From Bacillota bacterium (lineage in GTDB: Bacteria > Patescibacteriota > Minisyncoccia > Phycocordibacterales > Phycocordibacteraceae): a stretch of 64,000 bases of DNA. Each line of letters opens with the position of its first letter. Positions within the stretch are counted from its first letter, which is position 1. The position numbers were made by a program, and so were the translations under genes. The notes under the pieces are model-generated. The model worked only from the letters and a program-made list of their open reading frames with translations, did not search any database and was not told the origin of the DNA. The stretch covers positions 58,236 through 122,235 of the forward strand of contig JBLNCF010000012.1 in the NCBI GenBank assembly GCA_050260455.1. Direction: 5' to 3'. Positions 1 to 32,694 of the stretch are shown piece after piece.

Positions 1-693
1 GATGATGCCGAGGACTTTGCTGGGATGCTTCGACGTATGTACGAAGGATATGCAGATCGTAAAGGATGGAATGTGCGCGAACTGCATGCGAACGAGAACG
101 ACCATGGCGGGTATCGCAACCTCCTACTTGAGATAACCGGGAAGGGAGTATACGGCAGGTTGAAACACGAAGCTGGCGTACATCGCCTGGTCCGCATCTC
201 GCCATTTAATGCCAACGACAAACGCCAGACCAGCTTCGCGATGGTAGAGGTCCTCCCGATTGTAAAGAATGCTGACATCGAGATTAAAGACGATGAGCTT
301 GATATGCAGTTTGCAAAGTCTGGCGGGGCAGGTGGTCAAAACGTGAACAAGCGCGAGACGGCGGTGCGTATAACGCATGTGCCAACCGGAACCTCGGTGC
401 ATGTCTCTTCGGAGCGAAGCCAGCAAGCCAATCGAGAGAAGGCACTCGAACTCCTGAAGGCAAAACTGTATGCGAGGAAGCTCGAAGAAGAGGAAGCTGT
501 CGCCAAGGGTCGTTCGGTCGCGGCAACGACCGCCAACGAGTGGGGGAGTCAGATGCGTTCCTATGTCCTCCACCCCTATAAATTGGTGAAGGATCACGAA
601 ACAGGGCACGAATCGCGCGATACGGAAGGCGTGCTCGCCGGTGATCTGGACGGTTTTATTGATGCGGCACCGGCATCAGAGGAGGCGAATTAG
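1..693 (+). CDS. prfB: peptide chain release factor 2, C-terminal part (5' end outside window)
   Basis: ORF in frame from window edge; SPF tripeptide (RISPFNAN) and GGQ motif (GGAGGQNVNK). Confidence 0.8.
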   Translation, partial: DDAEDFAGMLRRMYEGYADRKGWNVRELHANENDHGGYRNLLLEITGKGVYGRLKHEAGVHRLVRISPFNANDKRQTSFAMVEVLPIVKNADIEIKDDELDMQFAKSGGAGGQNVNKRETAVRITHVPTGTSVHVSSERSQQANREKALELLKAKLYARKLEEEEAVAKGRSVAATTANEWGSQMRSYVLHPYKLVKDHETGHESRDTEGVLAGDLDGFIDAAPASEEAN

Positions 694-784
694 CTTATCC
701 ACACACTCTGTACGCCACGGGGCGGTGTGAGCGCTTCATTTTCATAGACGCGAAAAACGGGGTGGGGTACAATACCCCTCGTAC

Positions 785-1465
785 ATGATCTATTTCGACA
801 AGGTCACGAAGATGTATCGCGATGGGACACCTGCCCTTGAGGATGTGACCATCAACATCGCCCCCAAAGAATTCGTCTCCATCGTCGGTCACTCGGGCGC
901 CGGTAAAACGACCCTCCTCAAAATGCTTCTTGCCGAAGAGCGTCCCACCGAAGGATCGGTCTTCTTCGAATCGGTAGACGTACATGCGTTGCCGGCTTCC
1001 TCGCTCCACCACTACCGCCGCAAAATAGGGATGGTGTTCCAGGACTTCCGCCTCATTCCAAATAAGACGGCATACGAGAACGTTGCTTTTGCCATGGAGG
1101 CGGCTGGCCGTACCGAGGATGAAATCGGAAGCGATGTACCGCACTTCCTTGATCTTGTGGACCTCGGCAGCAAGGCGCACCATTTCCCAAGCCAGCTCTC
1201 GGGTGGTGAGCAGCAGCGTGTGGCTATCGCACGCGCCATTGTGAATGGTCCGGATGTCATTGTCGCTGACGAACCGACTGGCAACCTTGATCCGATTAAC
1301 ACGTACGAGATCATCGAGATCTTGAAGAAAATCAACGAGCTCGGTACGACCGTCATTATCACGACGCACAATAAGGGAGTGGTGGATGCGCTCGGCAAAC
1401 GCGTGGTCACGATGGACCGCGGTCGTGTCGTGCGTGATGATCAGCGTGGGCATTACGTCCTGTAA
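785..1465 (+). CDS. ftsE: cell division ATP-binding protein FtsE
   Basis: Walker [13 protein letters not shown] signature LSGGEQQR, Walker B; directly followed by ftsX. Confidence 0.9.
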
Positions 1466-1471
1466 ATCTAT

Positions 1472-2392
1472 ATGGGTACTTTCCTGAAACGAATCATCTC
1501 AAGCGGTGCGACGAGTTTCGCGCGCAGTGGCGCGGTATCGTTCGCAACCGTGCTCATCATGACCGTGACCCTCACGATCATCGGTTCCCTTATCTTCCTA
1601 TCGGCTATCCTAAACAACACCCTCTCCGAGATTGTGAGCAAGGTGGACGTGAACGTCTATTTCACGACCGATACGGCTGAATCCGATATTCTCGCTGTGA
1701 AATCAAAGCTCGAGGCGCTTCCGCAGGTTGCACTGGTCACCTATACGTCGCGCGATCAGGCGCTCGACGATTTCAAGACCCGTCACGCGAACGACACGCT
1801 CACGCTCCAGGCGCTCCAGGAGCTAGGCACTAATCCGCTTGAGGCCTCTCTTGCGGTGAAGGCCCAGGACCCAGGTCAATACAGTGCGATTGTTGACTAC
1901 CTTACATCGCAAAATCTCACTCCGGGTGATGGTTCCATCGTCGATCGTATTAACTATTTCCAGAATAAGACGGTCATCGACCGCCTTACGGCCGCCATCC
2001 GCACTACCCAGCAGGTAGGTCTTGCCATCATTGTCCTCTTCGCTCTTGCTTCCACGGTCATTGCACTCGCCACTATCCGGCTCGCTATCTACACTGCACG
2101 TGATGAGATTGCCGTCATGCGACTCGTCGGTGCATCGAACATGTACATCCGGGGTCCGTTCATCGTGGCAGGCATTATTGCTGGTACCCTCGCGGCACTC
2201 ATCTCCCTCATCCTCTTCTATCCAGTCACCTGGTATGCGGGTGGGGCACTGGAATCTTGGCTTGGTGGATTTAATCTCTTCCAGTACTACATGAGCCACT
2301 TTGCCTTCGTGTTCTTTGTGCTCGTCGGCTCCGGTATCTTCCTCGGCGCGCTCGCTAGCTGGATCGGCGTGCGCCGATATCTAAGAATCTAG
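1472..2392 (+). CDS. ftsX: cell division permease FtsX
   Basis: 306 aa, N-terminal TM, large extracytoplasmic loop, three C-terminal TMs; 7 nt after ftsE. Confidence 0.85.
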   Translation: MGTFLKRIISSGATSFARSGAVSFATVLIMTVTLTIIGSLIFLSAILNNTLSEIVSKVDVNVYFTTDTAESDILAVKSKLEALPQVALVTYTSRDQALDDFKTRHANDTLTLQALQELGTNPLEASLAVKAQDPGQYSAIVDYLTSQNLTPGDGSIVDRINYFQNKTVIDRLTAAIRTTQQVGLAIIVLFALASTVIALATIRLAIYTARDEIAVMRLVGASNMYIRGPFIVAGIIAGTLAALISLILFYPVTWYAGGALESWLGGFNLFQYYMSHFAFVFFVLVGSGIFLGALASWIGVRRYLRI

Positions 2393-2402
2393 TCTCGCAA
2401 TC

Positions 2403-4052
2403 ATGGCCATCGAAGGACATAAGTACATATTCGTGCTGGGCGGCGTCATGTCTGGCGTCGGTAAGGGTATCGCCACGTCCTCGATGGGTCTCATTCTCAA
2501 CCAACGCGGCTACAAGGTGAATCTCGTGAAGATCGATCCGTATCTCAACGTAGATGCGGGCACCATGAACCCGACCGAACACGGCGAAACCTTCGTGCTG
2601 AAGTCCGGTCTTGAGACCGACCAGGACATGGGTAACTACGAGCGCTTCCTCGGTCGCGACCTTGGTCCCGAGGACTACATGACCTCGGGTATGGTGTACA
2701 AGACCGTGATTGAGCGTGAACGTGCGCTTGAATACGGAGGCAAGTGCGTTGAGGCAGTGCCGCACGTACGCGATGAGATACTTCGCCGCATTGAGAAGGC
2801 TGCCTCCAATAACGGCAGTCGCATCTCTGTCATTGAGATTGGAGGAACCGTAGGCGACTTCCAAAACGCACTTTTCATTGATGCTGCGCGCGTTCTTAAG
2901 TTGAAGCATCCAGATGACGTCATCTTTGTGATGGTGTCGTACCTTCCCGTGCCGGGCACACTTGGCGAAATGAAGACGAAACCGACCCAGTCGGCAGTGC
3001 GTGAGCTCAATTCATACGGCGTGCAGCCTGACTTCATCATCGCGCGCAGTACCAGTGCCATGGATGCTCGTCGCAAGGAAAAGCTCGCCATCTCCTGCAA
3101 TGTTCGTCCCGACCGCATCATCTCGGCTCCCGATGTTGAGTCCATCTACGACGTACCGCTCAATCTTGAGAACGATCATATTGGTGACGCGCTCCTTGAG
3201 GCACTTAATCTTGAGACGAATGTGGAAGCTGACCTCGACGATTGGCGTGCGTTCGTGGAAAAGACTCGTGGGGATGGACGACCCAATCTGCGCATCGGCA
3301 TCGTTGGGAAATACTTTGATACTGGTGATTTCGTGCTTTCCGATGCGTATCTTTCGGTCATCGAAGCACTCAAGTTCTCTGCAGCTGCAGTGGGCGTTAA
3401 GGCAAAGATTGAGTGGCTGAACGCCAAGGATTTCGAGAAGAGTGCAGACATTGCTACGCTTGCCGAGTACGACGGCATCATTGTGCCAGGCGGGTTCGGT
3501 GAGACGGGTATCGAAGGCAAGATCAAAGCTGCACAGTTCTGCCGCGAGAACAAGATTCCGTACTTTGGTCTCTGCTACGGCATGCACATGTTGGTCATCG
3601 AGTACGCACGCAACATTGTGGGACTCGATGGTGCTCACACGGTTGAAATAAATCCTGACGCAAAGCACCCGGTCATTGATGTGATGCCGGATCAGAAGGC
3701 ACTTATTGCGGAAGGGAGGTACGGCGGTACCATGCGTCTCGGTACCTACCCGGCATACCTCAAGGAGGGAACGGTTGCTCGTGAAGCATACGGTGCCGAC
3801 GTGGTTGATGAACGTCATCGTCATCGCTACGAGGTGAACCCCGAATACGTCGAGCAACTCACCGACAAGGGCCTGGTTTTCTCGGGAACCAGCCCTGACG
3901 GTGTCCTCATGGAAATCGCCGAGCTTCCGAAGTCCGAGCATCCGTTCTATCTTGGCTGTCAGTTCCATCCGGAGCTCCAGGCGCGTCCGCTTACTCCGCA
4001 CCCGCTCTTCTCCGCCTTCATGAAGGCCGCCAAGGAGCGTTCGGAAGGATAA
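2403..4052 (+). CDS. pyrG: CTP synthase
   Basis: N-terminal KYIFVLGGVMSGVGKGI synthetase domain plus C-terminal class I glutamine amidotransferase (GLCYGMH). Confidence 0.95.
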   Translation: MAIEGHKYIFVLGGVMSGVGKGIATSSMGLILNQRGYKVNLVKIDPYLNVDAGTMNPTEHGETFVLKSGLETDQDMGNYERFLGRDLGPEDYMTSGMVYKTVIERERALEYGGKCVEAVPHVRDEILRRIEKAASNNGSRISVIEIGGTVGDFQNALFIDAARVLKLKHPDDVIFVMVSYLPVPGTLGEMKTKPTQSAVRELNSYGVQPDFIIARSTSAMDARRKEKLAISCNVRPDRIISAPDVESIYDVPLNLENDHIGDALLEALNLETNVEADLDDWRAFVEKTRGDGRPNLRIGIVGKYFDTGDFVLSDAYLSVIEALKFSAAAVGVKAKIEWLNAKDFEKSADIATLAEYDGIIVPGGFGETGIEGKIKAAQFCRENKIPYFGLCYGMHMLVIEYARNIVGLDGAHTVEINPDAKHPVIDVMPDQKALIAEGRYGGTMRLGTYPAYLKEGTVAREAYGADVVDERHRHRYEVNPEYVEQLTDKGLVFSGTSPDGVLMEIAELPKSEHPFYLGCQFHPELQARPLTPHPLFSAFMKAAKERSEG

Positions 4053-5384: not shown

Positions 5385-5422
5385 CAGAACCGCCGCCCAT
5401 ATGGGCGGCGGTTCTTTTGCTT
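5385..5422 (+). terminator. Rho-independent terminator
   Basis: Perfect hairpin CAGAACCGCCGCCC-ATAT-GGGCGGCGGTTCT followed by TTTTGCTT. Confidence 0.7.
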
Positions 5423-5488
5423 GGTTGAAAAGAGATTTGATTTCCAGTATTGTCATAAAACCGTGGCCGCTTCGGCGGCCCACGGTAT

Positions 5489-5559
5489 TGCGGGATCGTC
5501 TAATGGTAGGACGCAACACTCTGGATGTTGTTATCTAGGTTCGAGTCCTAGTCCCGCAG
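5489..5559 (+). tRNA. tRNA-Gln (anticodon CTG)
   Basis: Cloverleaf by eye: acceptor TGCGGGA/TCCCGCA, anticodon stem CAACA/TGTTG with loop CTCTGGA, T-arm CTAGG-TTCGAGT-CCTAG; CCA not encoded. Confidence 0.7.
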
Positions 5560-5602
5560 CTCGTTAAGGCACCATATTTCTTCCAAATGCTATTGTTATG
5601 CA

Positions 5603-6073
5603 ATGGAAAAGTTCGAGCATAAACGTCCCGTAGGAAACTCAGAGCGGTTCGGAAGTGAACACAGACTTGAATTGATGATAGATGGCGAAAAGGTGGGGTA
5701 TGCAGCTTTCGAATACCATTCACGTCCATTTCCGCTTTATTACATTAATATCTTGGCCGTCGGTAAAGATGGAAACCAAAAGGATTGGGGCAAAGGCTAT
5801 GCTGGAAAGATTATGGCGTACCTTGAAGATATGCTTGATAAAAGCGGAAAGGCAGGGATTCTTATCGATGCTATAGATGAGAACTCTCCTGCCAAGGGAA
5901 TGTATGAACGACGAGGCTGGCATCCTGTTCCTGGTACTGCATACTTGGCGTACAACATTCCAAACTCAGCTTCAATCGAAAGATTAAAGGAGTATCAGCC
6001 ACGCACTGAAAACGATAGTCGAATGAACAGGTTGTGGCAGACGAGGGAGATTGGAGAATTACCTAACAATTAA
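5603..6073 (+). CDS. GNAT-family N-acetyltransferase
   Basis: Acetyl-CoA motif A-like NQKDWGKGYAGKIM; lower local GC. Confidence 0.55.
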   Translation: MEKFEHKRPVGNSERFGSEHRLELMIDGEKVGYAAFEYHSRPFPLYYINILAVGKDGNQKDWGKGYAGKIMAYLEDMLDKSGKAGILIDAIDENSPAKGMYERRGWHPVPGTAYLAYNIPNSASIERLKEYQPRTENDSRMNRLWQTREIGELPNN

Positions 6074-6147
6074 TGTTCGAATAACGTCTCAGACGGCCAG
6101 CTAACTTGAGATAGGTTCGGACTCCCAGGAGCCTTAGTATTACAAAT

Positions 6148-6654
6148 ATGGCAAGATCCAATAAACAAGAACTCGCGACTAGTTTTTTCGTCGATGGCAG
6201 AGAGTGTATAAAAAGTGCTGATATTCTCTTTCACGACAGAGATCGTGGTGCGCGTTCCCAGTATGGAATTCTCCTGATACACGGTATTGAGCTACTACTT
6301 AAGTCATACTTACTCTTAAAAAATGCATCGTTGCCGGATGATGCGAAAAAGATAGATGCGTACTTGATAGGACTCGGCCACAAATATAAGCATATCTACG
6401 ATGAGTGCAAAAAGTATGGAAACGAGTTAAGTGCACCCTTATCACCAGAGCTGCCTATTTCCATTTTAGAAGTCTACTTAGACTCTCTGAAAAATACTTA
6501 TTATGAAGATAGTGTTGGTGTTCGTTATGTAGATGAGTCGGGTTTGGTCCTTATTGACGGAATGATTTTCGCGGCAATTACTGGACATTTGATACGCCCC
6601 ATACACTCCATTCTTTTCCCCCACACTCCCTTTTCGGGAGATTACGGATACTAA
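6148..6654 (+). CDS. hypothetical protein (AT-rich, possibly foreign)
   Basis: 168-aa ORF with the lowest GC in the window; no motif recognised; HEPN-like fold is only a weak guess. Confidence 0.4.
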   Translation: MARSNKQELATSFFVDGRECIKSADILFHDRDRGARSQYGILLIHGIELLLKSYLLLKNASLPDDAKKIDAYLIGLGHKYKHIYDECKKYGNELSAPLSPELPISILEVYLDSLKNTYYEDSVGVRYVDESGLVLIDGMIFAAITGHLIRPIHSILFPHTPFSGDYGY

Positions 6655-6804
6655 TTCCGAGGAGCGTCGATTTGAGAAAGAAATATCCGCTAGAAAAGAC
6701 TTGTGGAGCTTGGCGGCAGGACTTACGAGACCGAGGAGGCCAGCAGCTTACAAAGTCTGAAAAATGAAAAGCCGTCCTCCAACGACCTTTCGTTGGAGGA
6801 CGGA

Positions 6805-7266
6805 CTAGAAGGGAACTGGCCGTATGCGTTGGAAGGAGTAGCGGATGCCCAGGTTGAGAAGTAAACGTTCGCCTTCTTCGACAACAGTAACTGCATGCCG
6901 GTACTTGCAAGGTTCGAAGATCTTGAAGTGCCGCCGGTTGACGATGAAATGCGGAACGACAAGCTCTCCGCCACTCACGGCATTCTTTAAGATGAACTGA
7001 ACACGGAATTGCCGTTCGCCTTTCTCGATGTAATCAATGTGCTCCGCCAAGTAGTCACCAACTCCATACTTGCTCACATGGAGCTGGAGCTGTAGAAGTA
7101 TGGGCCAGCGGAGATTGATAACATACTCTTGGTACCGCAAGCTCCCGCCGTCGTACTCGACTCGCTGCCATTTAGGCCTGACGATTATGCTCAATACGGG
7201 ATCTTTCCATAAGAGCCCGCCGTCAGGGGTGTGCCTCGGTATGAGGCGCCATAAGTCTTTTCTCAT
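6805..7266 (-). CDS. hypothetical protein
   Basis: 153-aa ORF convergent with the previous gene; no recognisable motif. Confidence 0.35.
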   Translation of the reverse strand: MRKDLWRLIPRHTPDGGLLWKDPVLSIIVRPKWQRVEYDGGSLRYQEYVINLRWPILLQLQLHVSKYGVGDYLAEHIDYIEKGERQFRVQFILKNAVSGGELVVPHFIVNRRHFKIFEPCKYRHAVTVVEEGERLLLNLGIRYSFQRIRPVPF

Positions 7267-7415
7267 AAGACGCCTCCGGTGATTGCCTGGACAGAACCTA
7301 TCACATGTTGCAGAAAGTCTCCAGTGGTCGCACTCTAAAGCACTCCAAGAATACTCCCGGGGTTCTTCATTCAGATACTGCTATAGTTACTTCATTATTC
7401 GTGTTGCCTCGTATT

Positions 7416-7760
7416 ATGAACAAATACGTAGCTATCTTCTGTATTCCGGCCGCAGCCATGCAAGACTGGATGACTAATGTGGACGAAACTACTCGCAAAG
7501 AACAGTCCCAGCAGGTCATGGAGCAGTGGAATGCCTGGCGCGAAACCAATAAGGATGCAATCGTCGAAGAGGGAATGCCTCTCGGCAAGACCAAGCGTGT
7601 CAGCAAGGATGCTATCGAAGATGTAAAGAACGATATGAACTGGTTCATGATCGTGCAGGCGGAGTCGCATGAGGCAGCGGCTACGCTTGTTCAGTCAAAC
7701 CCGCACCTCCAGCTTATCCCGAGTGCATACGTGGAGGTCATGGATACGGGCGGGATGTAG
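7416..7760 (+). CDS. YciI/DGPF-like dimeric alpha/beta-barrel protein (putative)
   Basis: Internal start MNKYVAIF in ORF 7305..7760; C-terminal NWFMIVQAESHEAAATLVQSNPH resembles YciI-like family; TGcTATAGT extended -10 about 22 nt upstream. Confidence 0.45.
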   Translation: MNKYVAIFCIPAAAMQDWMTNVDETTRKEQSQQVMEQWNAWRETNKDAIVEEGMPLGKTKRVSKDAIEDVKNDMNWFMIVQAESHEAAATLVQSNPHLQLIPSAYVEVMDTGGM

Positions 7761-7895
7761 CTCCTTGCTTGAGAATTATTATGGGGATGGGCGAACCTCG
7801 GCTGGTGCTCACTCGCACGAGGGTGCCATAGATTCTCCCTGGTTCTCGTGGTATAACCCGTCCGGCAATCTCGCCTCGACACCAGGGAGGGTGGA

Positions 7896-8738
7896 ATGAC
7901 CACCACGGAAATATTTCGCTGTCCCTTCGAGGTGAAGGGAGAACAAGATAGTCGTATCCGCCGGGTCGTACTCGGCGAGAACCGCGAAGAGCGCTTCGAG
8001 CTAATAACTGGAGCGTTCAAAGAATTTCAGCAGGATCTAGAGCGTGTCGCGATCAGATTCTGTCTGGATGCTGCTCTCTGGAGCGGCTGCAAGACCATCC
8101 GTGCTCTGCGTTCTTCTCTTGTACCTTACCAAGCAGAGCTGCTTGCTACGGAGATGAGTCTCCGTCTCTCTCCTTTCCTTCCACATCAATTCTGTGAGCT
8201 TGATGAGGAGGAGCGGCACCTGGCGTATAAGAATAATCCTCATGGCCTCGACGCCGCGTACGCACTCTTCGAAACGATTTCGGGGTGTGGTGGTGATGCG
8301 GGATCGGTGAGCGGCATTGCGGACTGGATGCAGCAGCAGCTTACAGCAGGGTTCATTGCCGCCAAGAAAACGCCCCGGCTCGACATCCATGATCCACGCA
8401 TACCATTTGTAACTGCGGAAACACGCTTGCTAAGCATTCATCCACACTCGTTCGTGCTACATCGTGAGCGAGAGGGTGGACTCGAGGATCCGCAGAAGAA
8501 TCGGAATACGTTCTCCGTCGTTAAGACACCTTTCTACCCTCACTCGTTCGGAAGGTATAGCGAAACGGTCGAGATCGTCGTCACGCGTGAGGCGGACTTC
8601 ACCGCGATCTCAAGCGAAACCCGTGAACGTATCCGAGTGGCGTCCACACAAATACTCAAACGTGGAGGAGTAAAGGTTCACCAAGACCTACGCGAGCACC
8701 GCAACGAGCTCGGGCTCTGGATCCCCAAACTACGCTAG
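7896..8738 (+). CDS. hypothetical protein
   Basis: 280-aa ORF; no recognisable motif. Confidence 0.45.
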   Translation: MTTTEIFRCPFEVKGEQDSRIRRVVLGENREERFELITGAFKEFQQDLERVAIRFCLDAALWSGCKTIRALRSSLVPYQAELLATEMSLRLSPFLPHQFCELDEEERHLAYKNNPHGLDAAYALFETISGCGGDAGSVSGIADWMQQQLTAGFIAAKKTPRLDIHDPRIPFVTAETRLLSIHPHSFVLHREREGGLEDPQKNRNTFSVVKTPFYPHSFGRYSETVEIVVTREADFTAISSETRERIRVASTQILKRGGVKVHQDLREHRNELGLWIPKLR

Positions 8739-8818
8739 CTCTGTGGGCAGCGTCCGGCCGGCGAGAGATCGCCGGCTTTTCATATCTTATTTACCCGATT
8801 CCTCGTATGCTCCGTGCT

Positions 8819-9004
8819 ATGCCTGCAAAATCGAAGAAGCAACAGATGGCCGCGGGAGCAGCTCTCTCCGCTAAACGGGGAGAGAAGAGCAAAGCCTCAC
8901 TCAAGGGTGCATCGAGGAGTATGTACGAATCTATGAGCGAGAAGGAACTCGACAAGATGGCGAGCGTCAAACGCAAGAAACTTCCGGCAAAGAAACGCTC
9001 CTAA
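8819..9004 (+). CDS. small basic protein, DUF3008-like
   Basis: MPAKSKKQQMAAGAALSAKRGE...KGASRSMYESMSEKELDKMAS matches the short Lys-rich DUF3008 pattern as I recall it. Confidence 0.45.
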   Translation: MPAKSKKQQMAAGAALSAKRGEKSKASLKGASRSMYESMSEKELDKMASVKRKKLPAKKRS

Positions 9005-9046
9005 GTTCATCGTTTCCTTAAGAAAAGAGGGGGTACAATAGCGGGT

Positions 9047-9934
9047 ATGACACGATTTGGCATGCTCGTAGTGTTAGGAGCGATTGTTCTCGTTGGTCTG
9101 ATTGGGTGGTATGCGTTTGGACGTACTGGAACACAGGTGGCTCCTGCTGAACAAGCAACCACCACACCAACTACTTCCGTTACACCACCACAACCCGCAT
9201 CCAAGGACGATCTGATCGTGGTTGACGCACCGTTACCGAATGCGGTGGTCGGAAGCCCTCTTACAGTGACGGGAAAGGCACGTGGCTCATGGTATTTCGA
9301 GGCACAGTTTCCCGTGAAGCTCTATGACGCAACGGGAAAGCTGATCGCAAGCGCCCCTGCGCATGCATCCGGGGACTGGATGACGACTGAATATGTGCCA
9401 TTCTCGGTAACACTTACGTTCGCCTCCTCAAACACATCCACGGGGAAGCTTGTGCTTGAGAAAGATAACCCTTCTGGACTTCCTCAAAACGCAAACTCGC
9501 TTGAGATTCCGGTGAGTTTCTTATCGAGTCAATCTGGACAGACAACGGTGAAGCTCTATTACTACAACCCCTTGCTTGATCAAGGACCGGGTGGAGCACA
9601 ATGCAGCTCGAAAGGCTTAGTCGCAGTCGAGCGCAATATCCCGAAAACTTCTACGCCGCTTACTGACGCAATACAATTGCTACTCAAGGGTGAATTGACT
9701 GATGCCGAACGAGCTCAAGGTCTTACGACAGAATTTCCATTGCCAGACGTTTCACTCACCAATGCATCGATAACAAGTGGGGTGGCGACGCTCACCTTTG
9801 CTGATCCACAGCACAAGCTTTCTGGTGGTTCGTGCCGGACCTCCATCCTGTGGAAGGAGATAGAAGCTACCGCAAAGCAATTCCCGACCGTTTCTTCTGT
9901 CCGCTACCATCCTGCGACCTTGTTCCAACCCTAG
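9047..9934 (+). CDS. Gmad2 Ig-like plus GerMN domain protein, membrane-anchored
   Basis: N-terminal TM; Gmad2-like VVDAPLPNAVVGSPLTVTGKARGSWYFEAQFPVKLYD; C-terminal GerMN-like (LYYYNP...ATLTFADP...SVRY). Confidence 0.65.
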   Translation: MTRFGMLVVLGAIVLVGLIGWYAFGRTGTQVAPAEQATTTPTTSVTPPQPASKDDLIVVDAPLPNAVVGSPLTVTGKARGSWYFEAQFPVKLYDATGKLIASAPAHASGDWMTTEYVPFSVTLTFASSNTSTGKLVLEKDNPSGLPQNANSLEIPVSFLSSQSGQTTVKLYYYNPLLDQGPGGAQCSSKGLVAVERNIPKTSTPLTDAIQLLLKGELTDAERAQGLTTEFPLPDVSLTNASITSGVATLTFADPQHKLSGGSCRTSILWKEIEATAKQFPTVSSVRYHPATLFQP

Positions 9935-9935
9935 T

Positions 9936-9944
9936 GGTATTCTG
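9936..9944 (+). promoter_or_regulatory. extended -10 element TGGTATTCT ending 6 nt before the VIT start codon
   Basis: TGnTATTCT; spacing implies the transcript starts at or next to the ATG (leaderless). Confidence 0.3.
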
Positions 9945-9949
9945 AATCC

Positions 9950-10651
9950 ATGAGGACCCACCGCGAACTTCACACCGCTCCGATTGCGGGCAAGCTGAAT
10001 TGGCTGCGTGCGGCGGTGCTGGGTGCAAACGATGGCATCGTCTCACTTGCTGCACTTGTAGTTGGAGTTGCCGGAGCATCCGTCCCGTCAGGAGTGATAT
10101 TTGTGACGGGTATCGCGGGGCTTCTGGCAGGTGCCTTTTCCATGGCGGTGGGTGAGTACGTATCGGTGAGTAGCCAACGCGATGCCGAACGAGCGCTGCT
10201 CGATAAGGAACGCTACGAGCTTGAGCACTATGCCGGACCCGAACTCGATGAACTCACCTCCCTCTACGAAAAGAAAGGACTTAATCCTGGCACGGCGCGT
10301 ACTGTGGCCGAAGAACTCACTGCCCATGATGTCTTTGCAGCGCACGCGGAAGCTGAGCTTGGTATTAACCCTAAAGAACTCACGAATCCGTGGCATGCTG
10401 CCGGCGCGTCAGCGGCTGCGTTTACGGTAGGTGCCCTTATTCCGCTCCTCGCAATACTCATTCCGCCCGCGCCGCTTCGCATACCGGTCACATTCGCCGC
10501 AGTGCTCGTAGCTCTTACAATTACTGGGGTAGTAAGCGCGCGTGCCACCGGGGTAAAAACCATACCCGCAACACTTCGGGTACTTATCGGTGGTATCCTT
10601 GCGATGGCCATCACCTTCCTGATTGGGCGGCTGTTTGAAGGAGCGGCATAA
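9950..10651 (+). CDS. VIT1/CCC1-family iron/manganese transporter
   Basis: LRAAVLGANDGIVS and GEYVSVSSQRD signatures; five TMs; stop 3 nt before the sigma factor gene. Confidence 0.8.
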   Translation: MRTHRELHTAPIAGKLNWLRAAVLGANDGIVSLAALVVGVAGASVPSGVIFVTGIAGLLAGAFSMAVGEYVSVSSQRDAERALLDKERYELEHYAGPELDELTSLYEKKGLNPGTARTVAEELTAHDVFAAHAEAELGINPKELTNPWHAAGASAAAFTVGALIPLLAILIPPAPLRIPVTFAAVLVALTITGVVSARATGVKTIPATLRVLIGGILAMAITFLIGRLFEGAA

Positions 10652-10653
10652 GC

Positions 10654-11217
10654 ATGGAAACAGACGAGTCGCTTGCTAGTCGGGTTCAGCAGGGAGACGA
10701 TCAGGCGCTCGGGGAACTCATAGAACGTTACGAAAAGAAACTATTACGGTACGGTTCTCGTTTCTTGGGGAGTCAGGGAGAAGATGCAGTTGTACAAGCG
10801 GTCCAGGACATTTTCATTCGGGTTTATCAGAACATTGCATCATTCGATACGCGTCAACGGTTTTCGCCCTGGATTTATCGGGTTGCACACAATACCTTTG
10901 TGAGCATTCTTCGCCAACGGACGCGTCAACCCGTGTACGGTATTGATTTCGATAGCTTCTTTCCGCATCCGGTACATGAAGATTCCGAGCGCCGAGAGAA
11001 AGAACATGCAGAAATCCGCGTAGTAGTAGAGGCGGCACTCTCCTCCTTGTCTGCCGCACATCGTGAAATTATCGTCCTATACTATTTTGAGGAACTCTCG
11101 TATCAGGAAATCGCCGATGTGCTCCGTATCCCGGTCAGCACGGTAGGGGTGCGGCTATCGCGCGCTCGTGAACGGCTGAAGCGAATCCTTCCCGAGAGTT
11201 CTGAACTGCCCCTATGA
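10654..11217 (+). CDS. ECF-type RNA polymerase sigma-70 factor
   Basis: Sigma region 2 (IFIRVYQNIASFD...FSPWIYRVAHN) and region 4 (YYFEELSYQEIADVLRIPVSTVGVRLSRARERL). Confidence 0.85.
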   Translation: METDESLASRVQQGDDQALGELIERYEKKLLRYGSRFLGSQGEDAVVQAVQDIFIRVYQNIASFDTRQRFSPWIYRVAHNTFVSILRQRTRQPVYGIDFDSFFPHPVHEDSERREKEHAEIRVVVEAALSSLSAAHREIIVLYYFEELSYQEIADVLRIPVSTVGVRLSRARERLKRILPESSELPL

Positions 11218-11927
11218 CGGACCACCCCAACAATTCGATACGAAGTACCGTACTTGAAAAGATACGGGAGGGGACGGTGCGTCGCCGACCGCGCGCGTAT
11301 TTTGTGGCGCGCATCGTAGCAACCGTGCTGGTAGCTATACTCCTCCTTGCCACGTCGGGGGTCGTCATTAGTTTCATTCTTTTCAGCTTGCATGAGAGCG
11401 GTGAACAGTTCTTGCTCGGGTTCGGTACCCGGGGAGTGCTCACATTCCTCACACTCTTTCCGTGGACCTGGGGAGTAGGTGCTGTGTTCCTCATCATCAT
11501 CCTCGATTGGCTCATACGTGGATTTCGGTTTGCGTATCGCATACCGCTCATGCCTATCTTCCTTGGCACTGTCGTGGCTAGCGTAATTCTCGGCATCGTA
11601 TTAAACCTCACACCGCTACACGCCACGCTTCTTCGGGAGGCGCATGAGCGTCAACTACCCGTTGTTGAAGATGTGTACGGCCATATATTTGATTCACACG
11701 AGCGGAAGGGAGTGTATCGCGGCTCCGTGATTTCTGTAGCGACAAGCACCTTCACACTTCAACACAATGATTGGGATCATGATCCCGATGACGGCATATT
11801 CACCATATTTGTGTCCCCGGAGAGCGGCATCCTGTTGCCACGTGTTGGAGACAAGGTGTTTGTTCTAGGAACGCTCGAAGAGGGGGTGATAGAAGCAAAG
11901 AACATCCAGATTTTCACATCTCGGTGA
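11214..11927 (+). CDS. putative membrane anti-sigma factor
   Basis: ATGA overlap with the sigma factor stop; cytoplasmic N-term, three TMs, extracytoplasmic C-term; call rests on position and topology only. Confidence 0.45.
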   Translation: MTDHPNNSIRSTVLEKIREGTVRRRPRAYFVARIVATVLVAILLLATSGVVISFILFSLHESGEQFLLGFGTRGVLTFLTLFPWTWGVGAVFLIIILDWLIRGFRFAYRIPLMPIFLGTVVASVILGIVLNLTPLHATLLREAHERQLPVVEDVYGHIFDSHERKGVYRGSVISVATSTFTLQHNDWDHDPDDGIFTIFVSPESGILLPRVGDKVFVLGTLEEGVIEAKNIQIFTSR

Positions 11928-11978
11928 GGATGTAATAAAGTCAGAAATCGTGCGTACTAAAGGGGTACCAGATACCCT

Positions 11979-12527
11979 ATGAAGAAATTCATCATCTCCG
12001 CTCTGTTTTTGCTTGGATTTGGATCGTATGCGATTTATAACCACACATCAGCCAAGCAGGCGAATGGCCTTGGTGTCGATGTAGCAACCACCACTTCGCT
12101 TGCTGTCGTGCCAACGGAAACCGACTCGACCTCTGCCGCTCCATCGAAACCCGTATCAAGCGCTCAACCACCAACGCGGCCGGTGACGAAGCCGTCAGCT
12201 CCGACTCCTGCACCTGTTCCAGAAACTCCGCGTCCTACGGGGAAGTATGTGGATGGCGTATATACGGGGAATGCGGCAGATGCGTATTACGGATATGTGC
12301 AAGTGCGCGCCACCATTTCGGGAGGTAAGTTGACGAATATTGCATTCCTGCAGTATCCAAATGACCGTCAGACTTCCGTCTATATTAGCCAGCAGGCTCT
12401 TCCGATGCTTCGTACCGAGGCGATAGAAGCTCAGAGCGCGAACGTCGATGGTGTCTCCGGTGCCTCGGATACCAGCCAAGCATTCGTCGAGTCACTCGGT
12501 TCTGCACTTGCTCAAGCCAAGGCATAG
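11979..12527 (+). CDS. secreted or anchored FMN-binding domain protein, likely ApbE substrate
   Basis: Signal/anchor MKKFIISALFLLGFGSYAIY; Pro/Thr linker; FMN_bind-like domain with flavinylation-type motif DGVSGASDTS. Confidence 0.7.
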   Translation: MKKFIISALFLLGFGSYAIYNHTSAKQANGLGVDVATTTSLAVVPTETDSTSAAPSKPVSSAQPPTRPVTKPSAPTPAPVPETPRPTGKYVDGVYTGNAADAYYGYVQVRATISGGKLTNIAFLQYPNDRQTSVYISQQALPMLRTEAIEAQSANVDGVSGASDTSQAFVESLGSALAQAKA

Positions 12528-30840: not shown

Positions 30841-30883
30841 TTTCATTGACGCCTTGCATATATAAAGGTATTTTTTACTCAAC

Positions 30884-30902
30884 GGCCGCGCGGCCTCTTT
30901 TT
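30884..30902 (+). promoter_or_regulatory. GC palindrome GGCCGCGCGGCC plus TCTTTTT immediately upstream of the typA start codon
   Basis: Perfect 12-bp palindrome followed by a U-tract ending 4 nt before the ATG; attenuator, operator or weak terminator. Confidence 0.35.
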
Positions 30903-30906
30903 AATT

Positions 30907-32694
30907 ATGGAAATACGGAATATCGCCATCATCGCCCACGTGGACCACGGCAAAACCACCCTTACTGACGCCCTCATGCGCCAGACCGGTGCGGTGCAGG
31001 AAGGCGTCTCCATGGACTCCAATACGCTTGAGCAGGAGCGCGGTATCACTATCTATTCGAAGAACACCTCCATCGAGTACAAGGGTACGAAGATCAACAT
31101 CGTGGACACACCGGGTCACGCCGACTTCGGCTCTGAAGTGGAGCGTGTGCTTCGTTCCATCGACTCGGTGCTTCTCGTCGTTGATGCGCAGGAAGGTCCG
31201 ATGCCGCAGACCCGCTTCGTGCTCAAGAAGTCGCTAGAGCTTGGATTGAAACCTATTGTGGTCCTGAACAAGATTGATAAGCCGGCAGCGAATCCTGCAC
31301 AGGCAGAGGAGCAGGTGCTTGAACTCTTCTGGGAACTCGGTGCAAGCGATGAGCAGTCTGACTTCCGTACGGTGTACGCTATCGGTCGCGAGGGTGTTGC
31401 CATGAAGAACCTTGAAGACGAGCGTACGGACCTTACGCCGCTTCTCGATACCATTCTTGAACTCGTTCCTCCTGCGTCCACGCCGGAAGCAGTGGAGAAA
31501 CCTGCGAAACTCCAGGCATTTAATCTCGCGTACGACAACTTCCTTGGCCGCCTCGCCATCTGCCGCGTATACGAAGGTGTCATCAAGGGGACTGACAACG
31601 TGACGGTGAAAAAACCGACTGGCGAAGCACGCACGGGCAAGCTCACCAAGGTCTTTACCTTCAAAGGGCTTGAACGTGTTGACGTACCTGAAGCCCAGGC
31701 GGGCGACATTGTTATCATTGCTGGTCTCCCCGACATCTTCATTGGCGAAACGATTACGACTGATCCGAATGCCGAGGCGCTTCCGGCCATCGCTATTGAT
31801 GAGCCGACCATTACGCTCTCGTTTCTGGTCAACAACTCTCCGTTTGCTGGTAAGGAAGGGAAGTACGTCACTTCACGCCAGCTCCGTGAGTATCTTGAAC
31901 GCGAGCTTGAAGTGAACGTGGGCCTTAAGGTGGACTTTGTTGCACCGGATAATTTCCAGGTCTCCGGCCGTGGTGAGCTTCACATTGCGATTCTTCTTGA
32001 GAATATGCGCCGTGCAGGATACGAAATGCAGGTCTCGCAGCCGCAGGTCATCATTCACGACAACAATGGCGTGAAGGAGGAACCGTTTGAAGAAGTCATT
32101 ATTGATACGCCGTCCGAGTTCCAGGGTGCCATCATCGAGAAGCTTGGTCAGCGCGGTTTTGTGCTTCAGAACATGCTGCAGCACGACACGCAGGTGCGCC
32201 TTACGCTTGAAGGTCCGACGCGCGGACTCCTCGGCTACCGCAACCAGTTTGTAATCGACACTAAGGGTGAGGGCATCCTCTCTTCACGTGTTATCGGCTT
32301 CAAGCCATTTGCCGGTGAAATTAAGAAGCGCCAGGTAGGCTCGATGATCTCGATGGCGGCTGGCAAAGCGCTCGGCTACGCCCTCTGGGGTCTTCAGGAA
32401 CGCGGCACACTCTACATGGGTCCAGGTGTGGATGTCTACGAGGGTCAGGTTATCGGCAATACCTCGAAGGGTGAAGAGATGATCGTGAATCCCACCAAGG
32501 GTAAGAACCTTACCAACGTGCGTTCGTCTGGCAACGATGAGGCTATCAATCTCTTTCCGCCGTATACGCTTTCTATCGAGCGTGGTCTTGAAGTGATGGC
32601 GGAGGACGAGTATCTCGAAATCACTCCTTCTTCGGTTCGTTTGCGCAAGCAGTATCTGACCGAGACCGATCGCGCAAAGGCTCGTCGCGCGTAG
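30907..32694 (+). CDS. typA: translational GTPase TypA/BipA
   Basis: [26 protein letters not shown]; 595 aa. Confidence 0.95.

Follow-up and report, generated by a model that had tools for sequence, protein, structure and literature searches.

Mobile elements are usually said to be scarce in Patescibacteria, the Candidate Phyla Radiation (CPR), whose genomes are tiny. In streptococci, cis-mobilisable elements (CIMEs) and their tandem accretion illustrate how integrase-less cargo units with remnants of attachment (att) sites can be stacked at a single tRNA gene or attB, with an att remnant left between them. Serine recombinases leave just a 2-bp core duplication and thus do not explain long repeats of tRNA fragments. 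The islands in tRNA genes (tDNA) collected by Islander abut the intact 3' part of a tRNA gene, carry a displaced tRNA 3' fragment at their far end, and hold an integrase within (PMC4383910).

Here we compare with these systems a 64-kb stretch of DNA (the window, to whose full length all bare coordinates refer), and in it the region directly 3' of a tRNA-Gln gene. An original prediction had taken 5560-8760 for a decayed integrated element in the tRNA flank. We find that the idea is supported for about 5561-6770, with its GNAT acetyltransferase and HEPN-fold genes, by a putative displaced tRNA end between these genes, the cargo found at the same hotspot in relatives, and the recurrence of HEPN homologs at tRNA-Gln; it is not supported for 6805-8760. 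On balance, the segment from 5561 to about 6770 is probably a decayed, immobile islet without an integrase, built in two steps at a clade-wide tRNA-Gln hotspot.

The upstream CTP synthase gene (pyrG) points to the Patescibacteria (Paceibacteria/Kaiserbacteria-like). The best species-representative pyrG is 77% identical; its genome is the closest of its kind available for flank comparison, and metagenome contigs are short or equally distant. The source metagenome-assembled genome carries the public label 'Bacillota bacterium', while pyrG identity and four-gene synteny lead to Patescibacteria/Paceibacteria; by these sequences the label is probably a taxonomic mislabel. Loci from other genomes and contigs are denoted by L numbers.

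The probable islet and the putative tRNA end inside it

The islet and its borders comprise the following features, with GC3 denoting the GC content at third codon positions.

5386..5415 (+): terminator-like hairpin, 13-bp stem and T tract; ends the upstream secreted-protein gene and is the last conserved left-flank feature before the tRNA
5489..5560 (+): tRNA-Gln, anticodon CTG (ARAGORN and Rfam, 61 bits); conserved anchor 3' of pyrG and presumed insertion target
5574..6702 (no strand): low-GC segment, GC 0.424, from a maximal-scoring-segment test; starts 14 nt past the tRNA 3' end
5603..6073 (+): divergent GNAT acetyltransferase, 156 aa, cargo unit 1; scores 26.6 bits with PF00583 (cut-off 20.7)
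6074..6131 (+): putative degenerate displaced tRNA-Gln 3' end (GTTCGAAT ... CCAGC) with conserved trailer; boundary of the GNAT and HEPN units
6148..6654 (+): protein of predicted HEPN fold, 168 aa, cargo unit 2; GC3 0.41, z -2.8
6772..6803 (-): hairpin, perfect 14-bp stem and T-rich tail; terminator of a convergent 2OG oxygenase gene and practical right limit of the islet

Base composition sets this segment apart from the rest of the DNA. Measured over 500 nt at a time, the whole 64 kb has a mean GC of 0.545 (sd 0.029), and values below 0.47 are confined to 5401-6900, with the global minimum of 0.41 near 6100. The segment 5574-6702 scores 32.9 against a shuffle-null maximum of 13.0 and is the sole significant one, the next-best of the 64 kb being at chance level. 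Its two genes have the lowest GC3 of all 74 open reading frames (ORFs): 0.43 for the GNAT (z -2.4), followed by the 6148 gene, whose strong AT-richness had been noted correctly. The predicted drop in GC behind the tRNA-Gln is therefore confirmed, yet the shift extends over some 1.1 kb and not the 3.2 kb proposed: GC3 is normal for 6805(-), 7416 and 7896, at 0.63, 0.60 and 0.58. As in Islander-type islands, apparently foreign DNA thus abuts the intact 3' part of a tRNA gene, the low-GC segment beginning 14 nt beyond it.

Hairpins at 5386-5415, 6803-6772(-) and 8756-8777 delimit three transcription units, namely GNAT plus HEPN, the 2OG gene, and a YCII-like plus a YqcI-like gene. An Rfam scan for known RNAs returned the tRNA only, and promoter-like sites were not enriched over shuffles.

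The spacer between the two cargo genes contains the second line of evidence. The block 6096-6131 agrees at 29/35 positions with the acceptor end of a tRNA-Gln(TTG) gene and its trailer at L082, a locus from the same sample (p<0.002; alignment score 40, null 12.5 +/- 2.0 with a maximum of 20). At L082, a HEPN paralog that is 77% identical starts 44 nt past this tRNA. Based on the match to the L082 acceptor end and trailer, and on the T-loop GTTCGAAT retained in the window upstream of the matching block, the most plausible identity of 6074-6131 is that of a tRNA-Gln 3' end, now degenerate, together with its trailer. The strong tRNA signal in the spacer comes from the acceptor end together with the trailer. 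A position between two cargo units is where the classical model puts the tRNA 3' end when two elements are stacked at one tRNA (PMC4383910).

The prediction that there is no obvious repeat of the tRNA 3' end stands for exact and near-exact CTG copies, and fails for this degenerate one. The 19-nt 3' end of the CTG tRNA has no copy with up to 3 mismatches in the whole window, and in gapped local alignment the 3' half of this tRNA scores at best 19-20 against the 14 kb downstream, where shuffles average 20-21. No displaced tRNA fragment was found 3' of the HEPN unit, and a general repeat search from 5.4 to 16 kb gave chance-level short repeats only, besides the 6772-6803 hairpin. A likeness to a T-arm at 6112-6128, picked out by eye, was discarded as insignificant alone against either tRNA; it has meaning only within the 35-nt block in common with L082. 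RNA folding of the spacer between the GNAT and HEPN genes is no better than that of shuffles (z -0.1).

How could such an arrangement arise? In a first step, a unit made up of the HEPN gene preceded by a tRNA-Gln 3' end and its trailer would have been placed directly past the tRNA, an arrangement still seen at tRNA-Gln(TTG) in L082. Later, a GNAT-bearing unit would have inserted at the same tRNA and regenerated it, so that the older tRNA 3' end was displaced to 6074-6102, where it would then have degenerated. Since neither the GNAT unit nor the HEPN unit carries a recombinase, insertion would have been catalysed in trans or by a part of the element since lost. The right end of the islet lies before the hairpin at 6772-6803. 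The sequences show the composition, the borders, the folds, the homologous tRNA end with its trailer, the recurrence at tRNA-Gln and the mobile or defence cargo of relatives; the order of the insertions, the recombinase and the function of the HEPN protein are what we infer here.

The tRNA-Gln flank in related genomes

The comparison with relatives reveals a sharp divide at the tRNA. All relatives keep four genes at 1-4052 in synteny, and tRNA-Gln(CTG) lies 3' of pyrG in most of them; nothing to the right of the tRNA is syntenic. No relative has any of the window genes at 5603-12527 at 10 kb or less from pyrG. This lack of conserved synteny beside tRNA-Gln agrees with the original prediction, whose boundary it does not support: the loss continues well beyond 8760.

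The DNA past the tRNA-Gln holds a different cargo in every relative, and in at least six of them GC falls just past the tRNA. Orthologous large serine recombinases lie 1.1-1.6 kb past it in L003, L060 and L070. A complete type I restriction-modification system with NucS/PDDEXK nuclease, HsdM, HsdS, DUF3800 and HsdR follows at L009:13300-21614, a TnsA-like gene (weak match) together with RelA_SpoT and Mrr_cat at L097:681-8301, and an EEP-family nuclease or phosphatase in L007. An integrase-less mini-island of 1.7 kb is present in L096, where the islet runs from the tRNA-Gln (L096:7183-7254) down to about L096:5462 on the reverse complement. Its GC is 0.45, compared with 0.64 upstream and 0.61 downstream; it carries TspO, DUF2177 and a 202-aa protein of no named family, and at its far end the tRNA 3' end recurs with 20/23 identities. 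Displaced pieces of the tRNA 3' part are found as a perfect 44-nt copy in L008 and a 56-nt copy in L092. Finally, a right-hand protein of about 165 aa stands at a variable distance from the tRNA-Gln: +1.1 kb in L011, +2.8 kb in L018 and +7.0 kb in L097.

The counterpart closest to our islet is the metagenome contig L095. Here, a tRNA-Gln 97% identical to the window's is followed by a different GNAT in the same slot (162 aa, Pfam 47 bits), which is 23% identical to the window GNAT over 56 aa and has a GC of 0.41 against 0.59 upstream. Directly past its stop codon comes a 29-nt element that corresponds to 6074-6102 with 27/29 identities. Alternative cargo thus occupies the same site between conserved flanks, as is customary for Islander-type islands.

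These examples of varying cargo, recombinases, tRNA fragments, GC drops and variable gene distances point to one conclusion: by sequence comparison, DNA has been inserted repeatedly in this clade on the 3' side of the tRNA-Gln(CTG) linked to pyrG.

Some further observations concern these loci themselves. Large serine recombinases situated 0.4-1.6 kb past a tRNA gene and pointing at it are encoded at L003:15224-16555(-), L060:14243-15523(-), L070:3863-4783(-), L043:6999-8270(-) and L006:12290-13489(-). The tRNA is tRNA-Gln in the first three, tRNA-Ser in L043 and tRNA-Glu in L006. The recombinases of L003, L060, L070 and L043 are 51-59% identical to each other and that of L006 is about 24% identical to that of L003; the five loci have no cargo in common besides the recombinase.

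In L008, which is part of the complete genome CP174359, and in L092 (L008:12805-13034 and L092:372-594(-)), the intact tRNA-Gln(CTG) is preceded, at a distance of about 45-75 nt, by 18-22 nt copied from the tRNA 5' end, and the 44-56-nt copy of the 3' part lies 23-27 nt past it. The arrangement gives the impression of an older tRNA gene split by an insert of about 150 nt that brought a fresh tRNA copy. The protein of about 165 aa in L011, L018 and L097 shows 75-81% mutual identity, above the identity of their pyrG to the window's, and would be under strong constraint or subject to horizontal exchange. At L005:19785-21629, a GTPase gene whose N-terminus resembles TypA/BipA is located 3.6 kb past the tRNA-Gln, and its 75% identical counterpart in the window (30868-32691) is 25 kb past, which suggests a larger history of rearrangement or insertion right of the tRNA.

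The cargo genes and competing explanations

The 6148-6654 protein is confidently predicted to adopt the four-helix, up-down HEPN fold. Its family has 15 members in 5.8 billion proteins, with H45, E48, K52, H78, D121, R126 and Y127 invariant, R126 preceding YV(D/Q)ES. None of the 15 members has a Pfam match, the family profile finds no PDB sequence at E-values (E) up to 10, the protein itself matches nothing in NCBIfam and PHROGs, and PADLOC gives only an insignificant PDC-S19 match (E 0.039). By sequence, the family is thus new among those with the HEPN fold, and no curated library recognises it.

Compared with the known HEPN superfamily (HEPN/MNT toxins, Abi, Csm6/Csx1, sacsin HEPN), the window family stands out by its own set of invariant residues and a recurrent link to tRNA-Gln genes. 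It is without a Pfam HEPN match and without an MNT or other conserved partner: the neighbours in the window are the GNAT and the 2OG oxygenase with no MNT gene beside it, and those in eight other contexts are mutually unrelated. It also differs from the superfamily in that the Rx4-6H motif of catalytic HEPN RNases is absent, a regular-expression search finding none in the 168-aa protein. Judged from the predicted fold alone, an RNA-targeting toxin or defence effector would be the most likely function, albeit at low confidence because of the missing motif. The defence or toxin role that had been suggested for genes of this kind fits the fold and is unproven; PADLOC has no credible match either.

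The recurrence beside tRNA-Gln is the most distinctive trait of this family. In 5/9 contexts (window, L082, L102, L104/105 and L014), a tRNA-Gln on the same strand precedes the family gene by no more than 1.3 kb; among contexts found purely by protein homology the count is 3/7. The chance expectation is about 0.3% per gene, an estimate for random placement in a genome of about 1 Mb. In L102 the homolog comes 800 nt past tRNA-Gln(CTG), and in L014, a pyrG-anchored relative, a divergent member (hidden Markov model E 8e-10) comes 70 nt past it. L105 has the order tRNA-Gln(TTG), DUF2806 and an 83-aa ORF, 13 nt identical to the tRNA 3' end, and the HEPN homolog. In L101, the distance between a homolog and a serine recombinase is 1.6 kb.

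A side observation concerns L082, where the HEPN paralog is followed by a 290-aa gene (L082:5527-6399) with no Pfam match and a GC of 0.425 in a locus of 0.545. Given this low GC, the foreign segment at the tRNA-Gln(TTG) there probably extends past the HEPN gene; no displaced tRNA fragment was found downstream in L082.

A bolder reading would take this linkage as functional and not as a case of hitch-hiking. The family could be the edge gene of tiny, recombinase-less CPR cassettes exchanged at tRNA-Gln 3' ends, with 6074-6102 as an active attachment site, or a non-canonical HEPN nuclease acting on tRNA-Gln or its precursor. We regard either version as quite improbable.

The GNAT gene at 5603-6073 was named correctly in the original prediction. 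Its product has both marks of the family: a profile score above the cut-off and acetyl-CoA motif A, in the motif-A-like form K60DWGKG65 that fits (Q/R)xxGxG/A with K in first place. It is a singleton among 5.8 billion proteins at the sensitivity of a word index. GNAT-RHH toxin-antitoxin systems of the TacT/AtaT type have a small RHH/DUF1778 antitoxin gene directly 5' of the toxin gene. The window GNAT differs from them in having no such ORF 5', the gap to the tRNA being just 42 nt.

Could the two genes work as a pair, a new toxin-antitoxin or defence module whose HEPN protein is controlled or complemented by the acetyltransferase? HEPN and GNAT domains are each known from toxin systems. Here one strand encodes both, with a gap of 74 nt that contains no terminator, and both genes are compositionally foreign; the L095 GNAT also precedes the same spacer element. 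Yet an adjacent GNAT occurs in 0 of the other eight HEPN contexts, the window GNAT is a singleton, no PADLOC match and no RHH or MNT partner gene is present, and the remnant of a tRNA end between the genes marks separate acquisitions. Such a pair is very improbable, and a conserved GNAT-HEPN module was rejected, as HEPN homologs elsewhere never have a GNAT neighbour.

Several points weigh against the two-step islet. No recombinase was found within 13 kb by a domain search of the genes from 5.5 to 18.6 kb, just as the original prediction had it, and tblastn with two queries detected no relative of the L003/L101-type serine recombinases in the 64 kb. None of the compared relatives is close enough to show an empty site. 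In 4/9 HEPN contexts no tRNA-Gln is near and the neighbours are unrelated. The 29-nt element on its own resembles a tRNA-Gln 3' end weakly (p ~0.045 for TTG, 0.4 for CTG), and between the window and L095 it is kept at 27/29 where the adjoining secreted protein is just 41% identical. Such conservation amid a diverged neighbour speaks for constraint rather than decay, and suggests that the element could be an attachment site in use, or could serve the HEPN gene as its promoter or 5' leader. Composition is likewise ambiguous. The GC3 of HEPN homologs is below that of the host in all hosts (z -1.7 to -3.4); the low GC is therefore partly a trait of the family and no proof of recent arrival. The window and L082 paralogs are saturated at synonymous sites (pS) and have a nonsynonymous difference (pN) of 0.16. 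The saturation indicates that the acquisitions were not recent.

The missing recombinase leads to the first alternative: acquisition by homologous or homology-facilitated illegitimate recombination anchored on tRNA-Gln genes, for example through DNA uptake or exchange between CTG and TTG loci, which would yield a foreign islet all the same. Besides the lack of a recombinase in the window, this route would draw on the long identical D-arm and T-arm stretches that tRNA-Gln isoacceptors have in common, on the HEPN unit with its tRNA end common to TTG and CTG loci, and on right-hand ends that vary and have no clear repeats. Recombinases at the same site in relatives, however, speak for catalysed insertion, and site-specific integration is expected to leave clean, displaced 3' fragments of the tRNA, as seen in L008/L092 (44-56 nt), L096 (23 nt) and L105 (13 nt). 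We therefore consider acquisition without any integrase unlikely.

The ambiguity of composition bears on the second alternative, according to which nothing was inserted. GNAT and HEPN would be native, lineage-specific genes with a gene-intrinsic low GC (AT-rich codons, low expression), and the vicinity of the tRNA would be coincidental or functional, for example through co-transcription. In its favour count the AT-rich third positions of HEPN homologs in all hosts, the age of the paralogs, the presence of a GNAT in the same slot of L095, and the conserved 29-nt element. But the window and L095 GNATs are essentially unrelated in sequence between flanks that are 93-97% identical, and the HEPN family, tiny as it is, is patchy, being present in 2 of about 20 pyrG-anchored relatives. 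Moreover, the tRNA end is duplicated along with the HEPN gene, and unrelated mobile or defence cargo lies at the same site in relatives. A native origin is thus improbable, and the two-step islet remains the reading that we favour.

Neighbouring genes and comparison with known systems

To the right of the islet, the original prediction had included three further genes, two of them as motif-less orphans.

6805..7266 (-): 2OG-Fe(II) oxygenase, 153 aa; PF13640 at 29.5 bits against 27; H76-I-D78 ... H124
7416..7760 (+): YCII-related small protein, 114 aa; family of 591 cluster representatives
7896..8738 (+): protein of predicted YqcI/YcgG-like fold, 280 aa; invariant N-terminal C9-P10-F11; family of 6 members
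8756..8777 (+): terminator-like hairpin; closes the 7416-8738 transcription unit

Profile and fold searches assign recognisable folds or enzyme families to all three supposed orphans. The HEPN-fold protein at 6148, described above, has no library match. The 6805-7266 protein belongs to the 2OG oxygenases by profile and by its HxD/E...H iron-binding triad, in line with a generic '2OG' match in PADLOC (E 1.4e-8). It also matches phrog_13746, a phage family whose function is not known, and does so better than Pfam (E 1e-15). A phage or plasmid origin was nevertheless rejected: no relatives of the HEPN family and no close ones of the 2OG gene were found on viral contigs, BFVD returned no significant structural match, and phage and plasmid collections contain no DNA match to the low-GC 1.24 kb.

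The gene at 7416-7760, for which ATG 7416 and not 7305 is the start, had been called YciI-like. This holds by way of its homologs, 13/42 of which (29-54% identical to it) match PF03795 YCII (E 6e-9 at best); for the protein itself, Pfam gives nothing at E up to 0.1.

The 7896-8738 protein is the third former orphan, and its structural model shows the AglA-type sandwich (YqcI/YcgG) fold. PF08892 reaches 15.7 bits on it, below the gathering score of 27, and 3/6 members of its family match this Pfam family weakly and no other. AglA is a thiolate-ligated haem N-hydroxylase whose fold is found nowhere else, with Cys44, Arg166, Lys196 and Arg200 as haem-ligating or propionate-binding residues (PMC12866846). 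The family in question has one invariant cysteine, C9 of the CPF motif, along with invariant R220, R231 and R247. In contrast to AglA (PDB 9ub3), the cysteine is at 9 and not at about 44, the sequence likeness is below the Pfam cut-off, the family profile does not match AglA among PDB sequences, and no biosynthetic cluster surrounds the window gene.

As for the start of this gene, the public annotation (ACM3TU_02420, 268 aa) begins 12 codons past ATG 7896. The shorter form would remove C9-P10-F11, invariant in 6/6 family members (window 7896-7931), and a Shine-Dalgarno-like GGGAGGG lies upstream of the longer ORF. An exact-protein look-up found no record of the 280-aa form.

Do these genes belong to the islet? 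Taking the whole of 5560-8760 as a single island, one would have to assume an older, ameliorated right half. Such a view could point to the genes at 5603-12527, none of which is within 10 kb of pyrG in any relative, to the 7896 and 6148 families, both tiny and patchy, and to the terminator at 8756-8777 that closes the span. However, GC3 and codon usage are normal in all three right-hand genes, which form separate transcription units; their homologs sit amid housekeeping genes in unrelated contexts and never with the HEPN gene, and the loss of synteny runs well past 8760, so that it sets no boundary there. A single island is accordingly most unlikely. A link between the 168-aa HEPN and 280-aa genes was rejected as well, since the two do not co-occur. 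With their normal composition, separate terminators and no contextual sign of insertion, the genes at 6805, 7416 and 7896 are compositionally native accessory enzymes outside the islet.

By itself, the feature in the window is ordinary: a 1.1-kb fossil islet of a known kind, with supposed orphans that turn out to be recognisable enzyme folds. Its setting is of wider interest. Across a Paceibacteria-like clade, one tRNA-Gln flank appears to have been reused for serine-recombinase elements, restriction systems, tRNA scars and integrase-less islets, which makes it a concrete locus for studying gene flow in the CPR. That a HEPN-fold family is found beside tRNA-Gln far more often than by chance is a linkage of moderate interest for CPR genome biology.

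How does the proposed two-step islet relate to the systems known so far? Large-serine-recombinase integrative elements occupy the same tRNA-Gln in L003, L060 and L070, whereas the window has no such gene. From Islander tDNA islands (PMC4383910) the islet differs in having no integrase gene, in its size of 1.1 kb and two genes, in a putative displaced fragment that is degenerate and comes from, or resembles, the other tRNA-Gln isoacceptor (TTG), and in the site recombinases of its relatives, which are of the large serine type and not the usual tyrosine integrases. It shares with these islands the abutment on the tRNA 3' part, the deviant composition and the reuse of the tDNA in relatives, and would share the displaced tRNA fragment. 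Streptococcal CIMEs differ from it in host, in their far larger units, and in their intact att pair and mobilising element, neither of which was identified in the window; like them, the putative islet consists of integrase-less units stacked at one site, with an att-like remnant between.

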